DNA from: an uncultured Candidatus Saccharibacteria bacterium
GTDB lineage: Bacteria; Patescibacteriota; Saccharimonadia; Saccharimonadales; Saccharimonadaceae
DNA length: 64,000 nucleotides
Assembly (NCBI GenBank): GCA_963524145.1
Contig: CAURDO010000005.1
Location: 20,289-84,288, forward strand
Direction of reading: 5' to 3'
Positions 3,521-8,532 of this stretch are shown in pieces. Made by a program: the position numbers and the translations under genes. The number at the start of each line of letters is the position of its first letter. Within the stretch, counting starts at the first letter, position 1. The notes under the pieces were generated by a model. It had not been told where the DNA came from, did not search any database, and saw only the letters and a program-made list of their open reading frames with translations.

Positions 3521-3604
3521 AAAGCTATTGTTTTAAGTAAAAAGCTCATGGTATACTTGATAATGAGTAATTATGGGCCGGGGCTCAATTAAGAACAATA
3601 GAGC

Positions 3605-6034
3605 ATGATAAGAAATAGAAAGTCATTAGCAATTACGAAGAAACACCGAATGGGATATTGTTTTGCCTTTGGTGGCATTATTGCTGTTGGCACAGTTATG
3701 AGCTTTATTTTCATGACATCGCAGCAGAGCCATGCGACGATTCCAGCTGGTGGTAAACAGAATGAGATTGGACAAGTCTCGTATCGCTTTTATCAGCCGT
3801 CGAATTCAGCTAATCCGGGGGCGCCGCTAGCTAACGCCAACACTGAAGCTACATTGTCAAAGCCTGGTGCTGATTTTCGCTTACGGGTTGGCGTGCAGAA
3901 TAAAGGTCCGTTTACGAAAAGCCTAGCAGTAGGCAGCGAAGGACATAATCATAGTTGTGCTGTTTTGTCGGACGGTAAGGCTTATTGTTGGGGAGAGGGT
4001 GCTTGGGGTGCGCTTGGCACCAACTCGACTTCCGATTCGAGTACGCCGACGCCAGTTTATACTGGCGGTGATTTAAGCGGCAAAACCATTAAGCAGATTG
4101 CTACTGGAGATTGGCATTCTTGTGCTATTGCTTCTGACAACAGAGTGTATTGCTGGGGCTACGGAAATAATGGAGAGCTAGGAAATGGCTATGACGGCCA
4201 AGTCAATGCGCCATCAGCCGTTAATACTTCTGGGGTTATGTCAGGTAAAGATATTACACAAATTGCTATTGGGTTTAATCATAACTGTGCCCTTGACTCT
4301 AATGGGAGTATATATTGTTGGGGTCAGAATTCATATGGTGAGCTGGGTAATAACTCAACAACAAAATCGAGTGTGCCAGTAGCTACCTCTATGTCAGAGT
4401 TCGGCGGGAGAAAAGTTAAGCAGATTGTTGCAGGCTTCTTTTATACATGCGCTTTAACAACTGACGGCTCGGTATTTTGTTGGGGTACTACCGCAAATGG
4501 TCGGATCGGTACAGGTCAAACTGGCGGCTATTCTACGCGGCCGGTACAGATAAGTTTTGGCGGCAAGACGGTTGAGTCAATTTCTGGACATGCCACTCAC
4601 GCTTGTGCGGTAATTTCGGGCTCTCAAGAGCTGTATTGCTGGGGGAAAAATAATAGGGGACAGATTGGTAATGGATCAACCTCGGATAGCTATTCTCCTT
4701 CTTCTGCCTCTGTAAGTGGAATTCTTGGTGGCGGAAAGACTATTAAGCAAGTAAAAGCCAGCTACGAGCATACGTGTATTCTCATTAGTAACGGAGATGT
4801 TTATTGTTGGGGGGCTGGCGACAAGGGTCAACTGGGTAATGGTTCGACTTCTGACTCGACATCGCCAGTAAGAGTCAATATGCCGTCTATAACTGCTGAT
4901 AATACTATACTCGAGATATCTAATGGCAATAATTTCTCGTGCGCTTCAACAACTAGAGGATACGCTTATTGTTGGGGCGAGAATTGGCATTATCAGTTGG
5001 GCAATGGTTCGTCGTCTAATGCCCTAACGCCTACGTCTTTATCAACTCCAGGACGAATTATCGGAGATTCAGCTATTAAATTACGTGCCGAATATGCAAA
5101 AAAGGGTAGTGCGGTGACATGTTCAGCGGTTAATGGTGCAGCCTGGCAGGCAATTGATGGAACGACAAAACTTGGCTACGCCACGAGCGGTCCAGCCGAC
5201 GGCACGGCTATAACTAAGACCTCAGATAATCCGTCATTGCCGGAAGACGCTATTGGTACGCGGCCGCAGACGATTGTCAGAAAGAATGGCGGCTCTTCAA
5301 CAACTTTCGCAAACACCCAAGACATAGCTGCTGGCGAAGTGGGTCTTTGGGATTTGGCGCTGGTTGATAAGGGGCTTGATAGGAATGAAAATTATTGCGT
5401 GCGTTTGGTGACGGATACTACCGCTGCGCCAGGCACCAGTGTCGACGTGTACGCGGTGTACCCAGAGTTTAAAACCGCTCCTGGATCATTGGATCTTCGT
5501 TTCGCGAATAGTGCGGGATCGACGGTTATTAATCCGACCGCGAGGTTTGCTGATGCAACCACAAGCAGAAATAGTGTAACTACAAGTGCTTCTTTATCTG
5601 ATGCTAGTTCAAAGCAAATTGAAGTAGTTAATACGCAGACCGATGCTGGATGGAGTGTGGTATTATCAGCCTCTAATGGATCGACTGCTCGCTGGCGGCA
5701 GTCAGGTGGCACGAAGTCCTACATGTTTAATGGTAATAGTGACAGTCAGGGGTTCTTGTCTGTTAAGTTTGCGGCTGCCTCTGTCATCACGTCGGGTAAT
5801 TCATTGAGTGGGGCGTCGTGTAATACTAGTGGTGTACAAAAGGGTTCTGATTTGCAATTCCAAGCGGGAGGGGCAAACGCAAATAGTATTACGCTGATGA
5901 GTAGCAGTAGTTCAACCGGTCAGCTGGGCTGTGCATTTTTATTGCGTAATGTTAGGCTGAATCAGACTATTCCGGCATATCAGAGTCCTGGCGTGTATAA
6001 TTTACCGATGACATTAACGGTGACGGCGCAGTAG
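3605..6034 (+). CDS. Secreted or membrane-anchored surface protein: seven RCC1-type propeller blades plus a C-terminal WxL-like domain
   Basis: N-terminal hydrophobic segment. Seven repeats ending in the YCWG/FCWG motif, followed by G.N..G.LG (aa ~105-483, nt ~3917-5053). The C-terminal ~180 aa (nt ~5483-6031) align with the product of 6794-7423. Confidence 0.8.
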   Translation: MIRNRKSLAITKKHRMGYCFAFGGIIAVGTVMSFIFMTSQQSHATIPAGGKQNEIGQVSYRFYQPSNSANPGAPLANANTEATLSKPGADFRLRVGVQNKGPFTKSLAVGSEGHNHSCAVLSDGKAYCWGEGAWGALGTNSTSDSSTPTPVYTGGDLSGKTIKQIATGDWHSCAIASDNRVYCWGYGNNGELGNGYDGQVNAPSAVNTSGVMSGKDITQIAIGFNHNCALDSNGSIYCWGQNSYGELGNNSTTKSSVPVATSMSEFGGRKVKQIVAGFFYTCALTTDGSVFCWGTTANGRIGTGQTGGYSTRPVQISFGGKTVESISGHATHACAVISGSQELYCWGKNNRGQIGNGSTSDSYSPSSASVSGILGGGKTIKQVKASYEHTCILISNGDVYCWGAGDKGQLGNGSTSDSTSPVRVNMPSITADNTILEISNGNNFSCASTTRGYAYCWGENWHYQLGNGSSSNALTPTSLSTPGRIIGDSAIKLRAEYAKKGSAVTCSAVNGAAWQAIDGTTKLGYATSGPADGTAITKTSDNPSLPEDAIGTRPQTIVRKNGGSSTTFANTQDIAAGEVGLWDLALVDKGLDRNENYCVRLVTDTTAAPGTSVDVYAVYPEFKTAPGSLDLRFANSAGSTVINPTARFADATTSRNSVTTSASLSDASSKQIEVVNTQTDAGWSVVLSASNGSTARWRQSGGTKSYMFNGNSDSQGFLSVKFAAASVITSGNSLSGASCNTSGVQKGSDLQFQAGGANANSITLMSSSSSTGQLGCAFLLRNVRLNQTIPAYQSPGVYNLPMTLTVTAQ

Positions 6035-6039
6035 GGGGT

Positions 6040-6735
6040 ATGATGAGTAGAGTAAAAAAATTATTCACTACTATCATACTACTTGTTGCAATGAGTATTT
6101 CTTCACCGGTTTTTGCGACTGCAGATTCGACGTTGTCGCAGGTGATTAGGGATATTGATTGCACGCATACTACGCTTGAAAATGGTAATCAATTAAACCA
6201 TCCAGATTGTCAAATTTTTGCGCCAAAATTTATGAAACTTGATTTGGTAGATAAGAAACATCCAGTTTTATATGGCGTATATGATGCAGTTCATACAGTC
6301 ACTAACCCTATAACAGGCCAGCATGATCTAACGGTGGAGTTTAATGGGCGGACGTTTGTATTGGGGCGAGATAGTGAGCTTCGGGTGAATGGTAACGTTT
6401 GGACATTAGATTTTTCAAATTGGCAAATTGACCATCCGGGGGACAATTTTATGCCACTAACTCCAGGCCATACTTATAATGGGCGAGTTACGGCCAAAAT
6501 GAAAGCAAACCCCTTATCTCCAGAAGTAACCCAGTTTGCTGATTTTTCAGTCACTATTCCAAAGCAAACCATTAAAGAGATTCTCGCCGTTCCACACATG
6601 CTTAAGAGAGCTGGCCGAGCTTTAGCGAGTACGGGCGTTAGTATGTGGCTGATGATTGTCGTTAGTACCGCCGCAATTTTTGTAGCATCCATTCTGTTGT
6701 TGATTCGTAAAAAAGAAAAGGAGCGGGATGGATGA
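6040..6735 (+). CDS. Surface protein with a signal peptide and a C-terminal LAXTG-type sortase sorting signal
   Basis: Signal peptide ...SSPVFA/TAD. LASTG (nt 6622-6636) is followed by a ~23-aa hydrophobic stretch and an RKKEKERDG tail. SD gggggt lies upstream. Confidence 0.65.
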   Translation: MMSRVKKLFTTIILLVAMSISSPVFATADSTLSQVIRDIDCTHTTLENGNQLNHPDCQIFAPKFMKLDLVDKKHPVLYGVYDAVHTVTNPITGQHDLTVEFNGRTFVLGRDSELRVNGNVWTLDFSNWQIDHPGDNFMPLTPGHTYNGRVTAKMKANPLSPEVTQFADFSVTIPKQTIKEILAVPHMLKRAGRALASTGVSMWLMIVVSTAAIFVASILLLIRKKEKERDG

Positions 6736-7423: not shown

Positions 7424-7443
7424 GTAGCTAAGTCACTAATAAA

Positions 7444-7474
7444 AAACGGGCACCTTTATGGATGTCCGTTTTTA
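7444..7474 (+). terminator. Rho-independent terminator after the WxL-like gene
   Basis: acgggca (7446-7452) / tgtccgt (7463-7469, one G-U pair), flanked by an A-run and tttt. Confidence 0.65.
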
Positions 7475-7545
7475 ATTTGCTTAAGTAGTAGTCATAAGCA
7501 TATTCTCTTGGTATAATAGGTAGTATAGTTTTGACAAGGAGGGTT

Positions 7546-8532
7546 ATGAATAGTTTATTGTGGCGTAAAATAGTTGGATCGGCTGTCGTTGTGGGTCTAA
7601 TTTTACCTATGTCAGTATCTGCTGCGGGAATTGGTAGTCGACCAGCTAATCCTGATCCAAATAACCCGAGGACCCAATCAATTTTTATTTACAATCTATC
7701 TGGCGGCGCCTCAAAATCCGACCAACTACACCTTCAGAATGGGCTAGATGAAAAAGCAACGGTTGAGGTTTATGCAGTTGATGGCACAGTAACAGCGACT
7801 GGTGATATGACCTGCAAGCAAAAAGTGGAGGATAAGGTTGACGCTGGTAAATGGGTTAATATTCCTAAGCAGGAGATAACGCTTGAGGCAAAGGAAAATA
7901 AACTAGTCGATTTTACCGTTAATGTTCCTAGTAAAGTGGATGTTGGTGAGCATAACGCCTGTATCGTAGTGCAGCGTAAAAATACTCAACCTGTAGCAAC
8001 GGGTGGTGTTCAGATACAAACCCGTCAGGCGATTCGTATGGCGATAGTTGTTCCTGGAAATATTCATCGTGATGTGACAATTGATAAATTTGATATTAAG
8101 CATGAAAATGGTGGTCAGTTATACGAAATTGCGCTAAAGAATTCTGGTAACGTATCTGCTGATGTTGACATTAAGTTGGTGGTCAAGGATGCAGCAGGAA
8201 ATGTTGTTTACAGGAACGGCGGCGTAAATGCAACGATTGCTAATGAAACACGTCAATTCCGTTATGAAAGTAAGCTGGCGCCGTTCTGGGGAGGTAAATA
8301 TACAGCAGAACTCTCGATTTCTTATAAGAAAAAAGCTGGTGAATGGGGGGTTGGTCAGAATCAAGGTGAGTTAATAACGAAGACTATTGAACCCAAAGAA
8401 TTGTTTTTCTGGCCGTCGACCATGGCTCTGGCGATAATTGGCGGTGTCTTGTTATTGGCTATTCTGCTATTGATTGGTATTATCTTCGCAATTAGGCGCC
8501 GCAAAAAAGCAGTTAATTTTGGTAATCGTTAG
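7546..8532 (+). CDS. Membrane-anchored surface protein resembling DUF916/DUF3324 (WxL-interacting protein, CscA-like)
   Basis: ATG 7546 is preceded by aaggaggg. Signal peptide, two beta-rich domains (..SIFIYNL..ATVEVYAVDG..; ..LYEIALKNSGNVSADVDIKLVV..), a C-terminal TM helix and RRRKK. Family call is by pattern memory only. Confidence 0.55.
   Translation: MNSLLWRKIVGSAVVVGLILPMSVSAAGIGSRPANPDPNNPRTQSIFIYNLSGGASKSDQLHLQNGLDEKATVEVYAVDGTVTATGDMTCKQKVEDKVDAGKWVNIPKQEITLEAKENKLVDFTVNVPSKVDVGEHNACIVVQRKNTQPVATGGVQIQTRQAIRMAIVVPGNIHRDVTIDKFDIKHENGGQLYEIALKNSGNVSADVDIKLVVKDAAGNVVYRNGGVNATIANETRQFRYESKLAPFWGGKYTAELSISYKKKAGEWGVGQNQGELITKTIEPKELFFWPSTMALAIIGGVLLLAILLLIGIIFAIRRRKKAVNFGNR

Follow-up and report, generated by a model that had tools for sequence, protein, structure and literature searches.

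Csc/WxL clusters are known from Lactobacillales, Listeria, and Bacillus, and in the papers that describe them (Siezen 2006, PMC1534035; PMC9772566; PMC10599100) they have four parts: CscA, which is the WxL-interacting protein, or WxLIP (a DUF916 domain, a DUF3324 domain, and a transmembrane, or TM, helix); CscB, a small WxL protein; CscC, a large WxL protein; and CscD, a small LPXTG protein. Here we analyze a locus of four genes, P1 to P4, in a stretch of 64,000 nucleotides (nt) from an uncultured Candidatus Saccharibacteria bacterium (contig CAURDO010000005.1; this whole stretch is called the window below), a member of the candidate phyla radiation (CPR). The four proteins probably, though by no means certainly, make up a Saccharibacteria form of the Csc/WxL cell-surface complex. 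A full-text literature search returned no paper linking Saccharibacteria with WxL or DUF916; the single match to Patescibacteria plus WxL was an unrelated mouse gut-microbiota study.

Two surface structures of Saccharibacteria also bear on the locus. In the Pam pili of Candidatus Mycosynbacter amalyticus, immunoglobulin (Ig)-like subunits are joined by donor-strand exchange, and the proposal for these pili includes TM-anchored PapD-like chaperones, a single-domain tip pilin (PamT), and a TM-anchored terminator (PamR) with an N-terminal strand (Troman et al., bioRxiv 10.64898/2026.03.03.709456). Neither WxL nor DUF916 is mentioned in that preprint. PilX2, a type IV minor pilin of Nanosynbacter lyticus TM7x, carries a seven-blade RCC1 propeller; its deletion lowers host binding, and models of the pilin resemble lectins and carbohydrate hydrolases (PMC11623550).

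Predicted P4 is a full-length homologue of WxLIP

An earlier note, made from the letters of the window alone, had described four consecutive genes on one strand whose products would make up a Csc/WxL-type parts list. The four open reading frames (ORFs) are present with the features it gave, on the plus strand between a VKOR gene and a liaF-like gene (Table 1), and encode predicted proteins of 809, 231, 209, and 328 aa (P1 to P4, respectively).

The P4 ORF spans positions 7531 to 8532, and its start is most likely the ATG at 7546, which is preceded by AAGGAGG and gives the 328-aa protein. From the ORF and the structure model, P4 has the architecture that had been claimed for it: a signal peptide, a DUF916-like Ig domain, a second beta-rich Ig domain, a C-terminal TM helix, and the residues RRRKK. 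The protein is basic (pI 9.2), with one candidate Cys pair (C90/C139). P4 matches the Pfam family PF06030 (WxLIP_PGBD, DUF916) with 38.5 bits against a cut-off of 27.3 bits (E = 1.4e-9). Precomputed annotations of PF06030 are found on many P4 homologues, one of which is named "DUF916 domain-containing protein" by NCBI.

The similarity extends over the whole protein. A sequence search of the PDB aligned residues 31 to 277 of P4 with EfmWxLIP1 (9i25_C, 9i1y_A; E = 0.004); PDB entries 9i25 ("WxLIP bound to long WxL") and 9i1y are structures of the WxLIP of Enterococcus faecium. When the P4 family profile was compared by hhalign with six genuine WxLIPs (from Enterococcus, Lactiplantibacillus, Lactococcus, Companilactobacillus, and Bacillus anthracis plasmids), the probability was 97.8% and the E value 1e-12 over 287 columns. 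Positions 39 to 328 of the P4 profile fell on positions 44 to 345 of the 349 of WxLIP, and PGBD, HBD, and the TM helix were all covered. Conservation in the P4 family is highest at G.RPxxPDPxNPRTQSIFIY, which aligns with the conserved N-terminal NQIDKxxxYFDLK region emphasized for WxLIP by Hassan et al.

The AlphaFold2 model of P4 (pLDDT 88.8) has two beta domains and a helix at residues 297 to 331 of the 333 modeled. When it was compared with the whole PDB by Foldseek, the best match was the E. faecium WxLIP 9i25_C (271 aligned columns), followed by 9i1y, with an E value of 2e-13. The next-best folds were the chaperones of chaperone-usher systems, CfaA, CsuC, Caf1M, FimC, and PapD (E = 1e-8 to 1e-6), and RbmA (E = 2e-7). 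Together, these comparisons show that the predicted P4 is a WxLIP/CscA homologue over its full length.

In distant Saccharibacteria homologues of P4 (P0232, P0176, P0196, P0165, and P0208, from L001, L090, L092, and other loci), a LysM module follows the TM helix and a run of Arg and Lys residues. It is therefore predicted to lie on the cytoplasmic side, which would be odd for a peptidoglycan-binding module. The P4 of the window has no LysM module.

P3 and P1 have in common a remote relative of the WxL domain

The P3 ORF spans positions 6728 to 7423. Because AAGGAGGG stands 6 nt before the ATG at 6794, and because all homologues begin with MKK, we take P3 to start at 6794. P3 is acidic (pI 4.7), and Gly, Ala, Ser, and Thr make up 52% of its residues. 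BLASTP aligned residues 627 to 808 of P1 with residues 64 to 230 of P3, as numbered in the 231-aa translation of the long ORF from 6728, with 31% identity over 183 columns (E = 4e-15). This alignment includes the blocks GW[ST][VL].L, TLMS.S, and IPA.Q..G.Y.LPMT.TV.A, which the earlier note had quoted, and it thus confirms the observation that the mature part of P3 aligns with the last ~180 aa of P1. The C terminus of P1 also matched the hidden Markov model (HMM) of this domain family, which we call the S family, at an E value of 1e-45.

A first hhalign comparison of the family with genuine WxL proteins gave a probability of 95.8% with the signal peptides included and of 64% without them. Because the signal peptides had contributed part of the first score, the comparison was repeated on mature domains, with reversed and shuffled alignments as controls; the C-terminal domain of P1 was included in the alignment. 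The mature domains matched genuine WxL domains with a P value of 6.5e-5 (3.2e-5 with deeper alignments) over 147 to 158 columns in one register. The score of 38.8 lay about 9.5 standard deviations above those of 60 block-shuffled controls (15.9 ± 2.4; maximum, 27), and the reversed-alignment control scored 12.7. In searches of targeted sets, the WxL HMM found the P3 of the window at an E value of 2e-5 (176 sequences), and the HMM of the new family found the WxL protein of B. anthracis pXO1 at an E value of 1e-5 (55 sequences).

The register of these alignments places both WxL motifs. The first motif is kept, as GWTLTL in P3 and GWSVVL in P1, and its Trp is nearly invariant in the family. V-D-N-P-G-G-A-N-N-G-W-T-L-T-L aligns with WxL V.(T)D.RGT.AGW.L.V, so that the Asp, the Gly turn, the Trp, the Leu, and the hydrophobic residue at +4 are retained, with one residue inserted and Pro in place of Arg. 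At the second motif, Y-T-L-P-M-T-Q-T-V aligns with WxL Y.TTLTW.L, and the hydrophobic residues at −2 and +2 are retained; the claim that LPMT.TV replaces the second W-x-L motif therefore holds. Written as patterns, V-D-N-x-G..GW.L.[LV] falls on V.D.RGT.AGW.L.V, and Y...[LM]T[QL]T[VL] on Y.TTLTW.L. The residues that match are those to which PMC9772566 gives a structural role in the WxL domain. The alignments and their controls show that the predicted C-terminal domain of P3 and P1 is a remote homologue of the WxL domain that has lost the second Trp. The assignment of the four-gene parts list to the Csc/WxL type is supported by this remote homology together with the WxLIP homology of P4.

The S family is large, with 742 clusters at 50% identity. 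In all of the 150 best-scoring representatives the domain ends at the C terminus, and about 45% of these are large proteins. Among the 66 large members scanned, the N-terminal parts contain RCC1, DUF7483, Laminin_G_3 (ConA-like), DUF2341, DUF4082, and other domains. A P4-like gene adjoins the S-domain gene in both of the longer contexts of unrelated representatives (L093 and L095); the contig of L094 is too short for this comparison. The WxL-like domain family is unannotated; some P4 homologues are already tagged DUF916 in databases.

Two variants were seen in this family. The context of P0314 (L093) is a more complex cluster, in which a P4-like gene with LysM is accompanied by a second gene with weak likeness to P4 (450 aa), a gene for a 522-aa domain protein, and a gene for a small protein. 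In P0359, an insertion of ~175 aa is nested within the WxL-like domain.

P2 and P3 begin with the same N-terminal peptide

P2 has a signal peptide and, as had been claimed, a C-terminal sorting signal: it ends in RALASTG, 23 hydrophobic residues, and RKKEKERDG. LA[SN]TG with a TM helix and a basic tail is kept in P2 of the Nanosynbacter type, and P2 of distant relatives has the TM helix and basic residues only. The protein has one candidate Cys pair (C41/C57), and nothing significant was found with it in Pfam and NCBIfam scans.

The first ~10 mature residues of P2 and P3, directly after the signal peptides, are alike; P1 is without the motif. In the window, the peptide is ATTANSTLTQTI in P3 and TADSTLSQVI in P2, whose mature N terminus ADSTLSQVI matches that of P3. 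The corresponding peptides in Nanosynbacter L002 are TTANSKLSQTI (P3) and SSANSNLSQVI (P2), and P2 has IDYQLRQEI in L087, ADSILEQQI in L090, and PVTFEQVI in L092. When a 12-residue HMM built on P3 sequences alone was used to search 2,806 ORFs, the top 98 were all P3 or P2. P2 scored up to 15.7 bits, always at residues ~27 to 31, and the best unrelated ORFs scored 9.1 and 6.2 bits.

Two canonical loci likewise have a mature N-terminal peptide common to CscD and the small WxL protein, different from the Saccharibacteria one. In Enterococcus mundtii pQY182 (L004:4645-5799), CscD has ETEGSISF and the small WxL protein TTEGQIEF (motif TEG.I.F); in Enterococcus innesii pEIDB1 (L006:2236-4846), the peptides are YDSNGVTSF and YTSNGAITF, respectively (motif SNG..F). 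The passages of the WxL papers that were consulted contain no mention of this common motif. They do contain the proposal of Hassan and Williamson (PMC9772566) that the N-terminal strand of the WxL domain covers the WxL platform and can rearrange. The common peptide of P2 and P3 suggests an exchangeable strand that would dock into a common acceptor site; because they have the same peptide, P2 and P3 probably dock in the same site.

The propeller of P1

P1 consists of an N-terminal hydrophobic signal or anchor, an RCC1 propeller, a middle beta domain, and the C-terminal WxL-like domain. The propeller, which the earlier note had not described, is matched by PF25390 at an E value of 8.4e-79 and by PF00415 at an E value of 1e-64 in seven stretches. 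Each blade has one Cys pair, in seven C.{10-11}[YF]CWG motifs; with C506/C598 and with C739/C776 in the WxL-like domain, these make nine candidate disulfide pairs. The middle region gave nothing significant in Pfam and NCBIfam scans. Orthologues of P1 were found in 40 or more loci. In several metagenome-assembled genomes (L014, L039, L051, L053, and L022), they are split into two or three ORFs, which could be real variation or could stem from errors, of assembly or of reading frame, within the repeats.

PilX2, too, has a seven-blade RCC1 propeller, displayed on a Saccharibacteria surface appendage, and by analogy with it the propeller of P1 may act as an adhesin. The two proteins differ in that PilX2 has a pilin N terminus and a C-terminal propeller and is encoded in a pilin locus, whereas in P1 the propeller comes first and the WxL-like domain last, and the locus is of the Csc type. 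P1 as an orthologue of PilX2 was rejected because of the opposite domain order and the different locus.

Conservation and position of the locus

The assemblies that yielded homologues of P3 (n = 388) and of P4 (n = 259) are of the Saccharibacteria type. When one genome per species of the Genome Taxonomy Database (GTDB) was scanned, 80 loci were obtained, and the titles of 78 of these name Saccharibacteria, Nanosynbacter, Saccharimonas, Nanoperiomorbaceae, Saccharimonadales, or TM7; one title has no taxon. One more (L076, JBLMYZ010000017.1) is a 4.5-kb contig binned as "Acidobacteriota bacterium" that carries a P4 homologue 52% identical to a Saccharibacteria protein, and it is probably a mis-binned contig.

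The gene set was counted in the 49 loci with at least 4.5 kb upstream of P4. All four genes are present in 42, in the order of the window except in L001 and L087 (the order in L022 differs solely through a split P1 fragment that was scored as P3). The other seven loci belong to the relatives at the greatest distance (38 to 47% P4 identity), and in five of them the small protein still adjoins P4. The four genes are kept together while P4 identity falls from 98% to about 41 to 44%. The earlier note had named the results that would speak against it, namely, no profile or structural similarity of the P3 and P1 domains to WxL or of P4 to DUF916/DUF3324, or no conservation of the gene set in relatives; these comparisons were run, and none of them refuted its reading, which is supported.

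The position of the locus is also conserved. In the five contexts compared (L001, L002, L003, L090, and L092), it is flanked by ftsA-ftsZ-nrdR and ileS, and VKOR is directly upstream of it in all but L090. These contexts range from host-associated Nanosynbacter-type genomes (L002 and L003) to an environmental metagenome from JGI (L092). In distant lineages, the gene order is small protein, P4-like protein, RCC1 protein, and P2-like protein; the canonical order in E. mundtii, small WxL, WxLIP, and large WxL, matches it. The 64-kb window encodes mostly housekeeping functions, and a search of it with the family HMMs found no second copy of the S-domain or P4 family.

Recent horizontal import from Firmicutes was considered and rejected: the syntenic position is fixed across deep Saccharibacteria lineages, and the locus is therefore not a recent import. 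As judged from gene order, it is an old feature of Saccharibacteria that has been kept vertically. In some Nanosynbacter genomes, a second small paralogue of P3 lies between P3 and P4 (L021:1853-2506 and L073:7292-7945).

Evidence that weighs against a Csc/WxL assignment

Several results weigh against the assignment of the locus to the Csc/WxL type. The Pfam check proposed in the earlier note had a divided outcome: DUF916 was found on P4, as described above, but P4 had no Pfam match to DUF3324, and the Pfam WxL model PF13731 matched none of 40 small members of the S family (E ≤ 10) and none of 66 large members (E ≤ 0.001). In the positive control, the same model matched 10 of 10 genuine WxL proteins. 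None of the 388 P3 homologues has a Pfam domain, and in Pfam and NCBIfam scans P3 itself gave nothing significant, with a weak NCBIfam match to the fimbrial protein StaE. When PDB sequences were searched with P3, with the P3 family profile, and with the large-protein profile, no WxL chain was found, nor any Pam chain in PDB copies that lack entries 25PZ and 25QA. The Foldseek check was similarly divided. P4 found 9i25_C, but the solved WxL chain 9i25_A was not among the 50 matches listed for the P3 model (pLDDT 89.0); all of these matches were weak (E = 0.016 to 0.5; TM-scores of 0.25 to 0.5) and were to donor-strand pilins (Csu, FimA, CfaB, Caf1, archaeal cannulae, and Hyper2). The Trp of the second motif is replaced, by Gln in the small proteins (MTQTV) and by Leu in the large ones (MTLTV; LPMTLTV in P1).

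P2 scored 12.8 bits with the LPXTG model TIGR01167, below the cut-off of 15.9. Its alignment with CscD covers the sorting signal only, with no domain-level similarity, and P2 is twice as long. A motif search for sortases across the window and ~1.2 Mb of related loci gave none; a sortase is present in over half of CPR genomes (PMC6744442).

At the extreme, the four genes might encode unrelated secreted proteins whose resemblance to Csc/WxL parts arises by chance from beta-rich folds and signal peptides, as the failure of the Pfam WxL model and the inflation of the first hhalign score by signal peptides could suggest, but with P4 above a curated Pfam threshold and aligned with WxLIP over its full length, a mature-domain similarity far outside the shuffled controls, and a gene set kept to such low P4 identities, this is highly improbable.

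Comparison with known systems

The locus has the same four-part list as the Csc/WxL clusters, including one TM-anchored protein with two Ig domains that is homologous to WxLIP over its full length. In both, a C-terminal beta domain, of ~180 aa here, occurs in one small protein (209 aa here) and one large protein (809 aa here), and the large protein, of ~800 aa, has a variable N-terminal binding module, which is of lectin or propeller type in the family. Both include an exported protein with an LPXTG-like signal and an anchored protein and a small WxL protein that begin with a common strand motif, and the order small protein, WxLIP, large protein is found in the distant Saccharibacteria relatives. 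The small protein is acidic and the WxLIP-like P4 basic; in the WxL papers, small WxL proteins are acidic and the CscA/WxLIP proteins of Lactiplantibacillus plantarum and Listeria monocytogenes basic, with Enterococcus WxLIPs acidic.

The differences are also clear. The locus is found in Saccharibacteria, whereas Firmicutes account for more than 91% of the known WxL sequences. The Saccharibacteria domain is too divergent for PF13731: it lacks the dual Trp-x-Leu, with Gln (small) or Leu (large) for the second Trp, and its turn before the first motif is longer by the one inserted residue. An RCC1 propeller forms the putative head. P2, roughly double the length of CscD, has a conserved Cys-paired domain of its own and LA[SN]TG or a TM helix only, and distant relatives have a LysM module on the WxLIP-like protein. 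The locus is in single copy at a fixed housekeeping position, unlike the multiple accessory or plasmid clusters of the Csc/WxL type.

On the reading that the locus encodes a Csc/WxL complex, P4 would be a WxL-interacting protein whose two Ig-like domains are anchored in the membrane by a C-terminal TM helix. In the manner of WxLIP and WxL in Enterococcus, it would complement the WxL-like domain of P3 and P1 with a beta-strand and so keep this domain at the surface of the cell. The WxL-like domain would be the foot of P1, and the disulfide-braced seven-blade propeller would project outward as a binding head, whose ligand would most likely be a glycan or a protein of the host bacterium. P2 would be fixed to the envelope, by its LA[SN]TG sorting signal in the Nanosynbacter type or by the TM helix only in distant relatives, and would dock through the N-terminal strand that it has in common with P3. 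We infer the physical contacts among P1 to P4 and the role of the strand; a ligand for the head and host attachment are suggested by analogy.

The Pam pili were compared with the locus by description only. They belong to the same bacterial class, consist of Sec-exported Ig-like subunits, and have no usher. Their PapD/FimC-like proteins with a C-terminal TM helix have the architecture of P4; the single-domain PamT resembles P3, and the TM-anchored PamR, for whose N-terminal strand a plugging role has been proposed, resembles P2. In contrast, the pam operon adjoins ATP synthase genes rather than ftsZ-nrdR-VKOR and ileS, it encodes two chaperones and several two-domain pilins, against a single chaperone-like gene and no pilin of two domains in this locus, and Pam includes no RCC1 protein and no LPXTG-type signal. 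A screen of S-family representatives by molecular weight and Cys count gave no match to PamA or PamB, and the contexts of three representatives (L093, L094, and L095; the L094 contig is short) contain no ATP synthase.

The chaperone-usher pili of Gram-negative bacteria (Fim, Pap, Caf1, Csu, and CFA/I) are a more distant comparison. P4 has their two-Ig chaperone-like fold, the P3 model weakly resembles their pilins, and a subunit domain would be completed, as in these pili, by the strand of a partner. They differ in that there is no outer membrane here, the chaperone-like P4 is predicted to be membrane anchored, and sequence similarity is negligible. The ORFs of the locus are all assigned elsewhere and none among the genes of L001, L002, L003, L090, and L092 is usher-like (the rest of the window was not scanned for an usher). 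The likeness is at most an apparent analogy of mechanism, not membership.

Alternative functions

The principal alternative is that the locus encodes a Pam-like, usher-less donor-strand fiber, in which P4 would be an anchored chaperone of the FimC/PapD type, P3 would polymerize by placing its conserved N-terminal strand in the open beta-domain of the following subunit, P1, with the acceptor domain and without the motif, would be the tip adhesin, and P2, with the donor motif and a wall or membrane anchor, would end the fiber and root it. The Pam pili are built on this logic (bioRxiv 10.64898/2026.03.03.709456). The folds next after WxLIP for P4 are those of chaperone-usher chaperones and RbmA, the sole fold matches of P3 are donor-strand subunits, and P3 has its weak link to StaE. 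The mature N-terminal peptide common to P2 and P3 and missing from P1 would also be expected of such a fiber, and the composition of P3 and the conserved terminator behind its gene (described below) fit an abundant structural subunit. However, the fold matches of P3 are all weak, the pam operon differs in composition and neighborhood, and in the monomer AlphaFold2 model P3 forms no beta-strand at its N-terminal motif. Nor is there any report of Csc/WxL complexes that polymerize. We regard the fiber as possible but doubtful.

The Csc/WxL and fiber readings could also be parts of one picture. Firmicutes WxL/Csc clusters, the Saccharibacteria locus, and the CPR Pam pili would then be branches of a single ancient usher-less chaperone and donor-strand system of single-membrane envelopes. 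The P2/P3 peptide would be an exchangeable donor strand, P3 a short fiber, the propeller of P1 the tip adhesin, P2 the wall root, and P4 a membrane-bound assembly chaperone. We offer this idea very tentatively and think it unlikely.

A third possibility is that the complex captures polysaccharides for nutrition, rather than attaching the cell to a host; the RCC1 head, like the variable N-terminal modules of other family members, would make the capture. Such a role was proposed for CscA to CscD by Siezen et al. 2006 (PMC1534035); the ConA-like/Laminin_G_3 and other lectin-type modules in large family members agree with it, as does the resemblance of PilX2 models to lectins and carbohydrate hydrolases. 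Against it, cultivated Saccharibacteria are obligate epibionts (PMC11623550), and the locus has a fixed housekeeping position and not that of a catabolic island. The genes linked to it in L001, L002, L003, L090, and L092 include no glycoside hydrolase or sugar transporter, and the window is mostly housekeeping, although no analysis was aimed at sugar uptake or degradation. Acquisition of carbohydrates thus seems quite improbable, and the Csc/WxL complex, with its possible role in attachment, remains the reading that we prefer.

Expression signals and neighboring genes

The features of the locus are listed in Table 1.

Table 1. Positions of the four genes, their main domains, expression signals, and flanking genes in the window
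Feature	Position (nt)	Strand	Basis
VKOR (disulfide oxidoreductase, vitamin K epoxide reductase type); context gene directly 5' of the locus	2912..3520	+	Pfam PF07884, E = 1.4e-30
P1, large WxL-like protein (CscC analogue), 809 aa	3605..6034	+	ORF; Pfam RCC1 families
P1 RCC1-like seven-bladed propeller, aa ~108-478, putative ligand-binding head	3926..5038	+	PF25390, PF00415
P1 C-terminal WxL-like ("S") domain, aa 627-809	5483..6031	+	BLASTP versus P3
P2, 231-aa exported protein with LASTG sorting signal (CscD analogue, larger)	6040..6735	+	ORF
P3, small WxL-like protein (CscB analogue), 209 aa	6794..7423	+	Signal peptide and single all-beta domain
Intrinsic-terminator-like hairpin and U run, directly 3' of P3	7442..7473	+	Folding energy versus shuffles
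Promoter-like site 5' of P4	7489..7517	+	TAGTCA-17-TATAAT, upstream TG
P4, WxLIP/CscA homologue, 328 aa	7546..8532	+	Pfam PF06030, fold, and hhalign
LiaF-like membrane protein	8554..9243	+	Pfam LiaF-TM, LiaI-LiaF-like_TM1

The hairpin after P3 has a folding energy of −16.2 kcal/mol (z = −5.1), and none of 200 shuffled sequences was as stable. A hairpin with a T run is found at the equivalent place in 50 of 64 distinct relatives. Because three clades have three unrelated stem sequences, it is the structure of the hairpin, not its sequence, that is conserved. The putative promoter before P4 matches the consensus at 10 of 12 positions and is a consensus match only.

The LiaF-like gene, of a cell-envelope stress family, starts 21 nt after P4 and is the same neighbor in L002 and L003; it is probably in one transcript with P4. 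A strong terminator with a 16-pair stem (9268-9303) follows it. Directly upstream of the locus, an 87-aa ORF lies with VKOR within the region 2659 to 3520 and has no match in Pfam or NCBIfam. An ORF of ~85 aa is upstream of the locus in the contexts of relatives, including L090, which has no VKOR match. VKOR has been linked to MdbA and sortase pili (Meheust 2019, PMC6744442). Because VKOR adjoins the locus, and because P1 (nine), P2 (one), and P4 (one) have candidate Cys pairs, VKOR and the ~85-aa ORF may have a linked function in the oxidative folding of these exported proteins.

Farther downstream (13298-14623), the window encodes a 441-aa membrane protein with a Gly/Ser-rich N terminus, a Tim44-like domain (E = 2e-8), and DUF3137; this protein is kept downstream of ileS in close relatives.

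Implications for Saccharibacteria and the WxL family

The Saccharibacteria in cultivation all live on other bacteria, to which they are attached. Type IV pili explain only part of the host binding of Saccharibacteria: type IV pilus mutants of TM7x still bind the host, and additional close-range surface adhesins have been invoked (PMC11623550). The locus described here is a concrete, testable candidate for such an adhesin because it is in single copy, is vertically conserved from oral Nanosynbacter to environmental (soil- or plant-associated) lineages, has an RCC1 head, and is carried by genetically tractable strains such as Nanosynbacter TM7-008.

The finding also extends the WxL/WxLIP system well outside the Firmicutes and defines a domain family, large and unannotated, that escapes the present Pfam models. 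The common N-terminal peptide points to strand exchange, a mechanism through which WxL clusters could be related to the Pam pili and, by analogy, to chaperone-usher pili.

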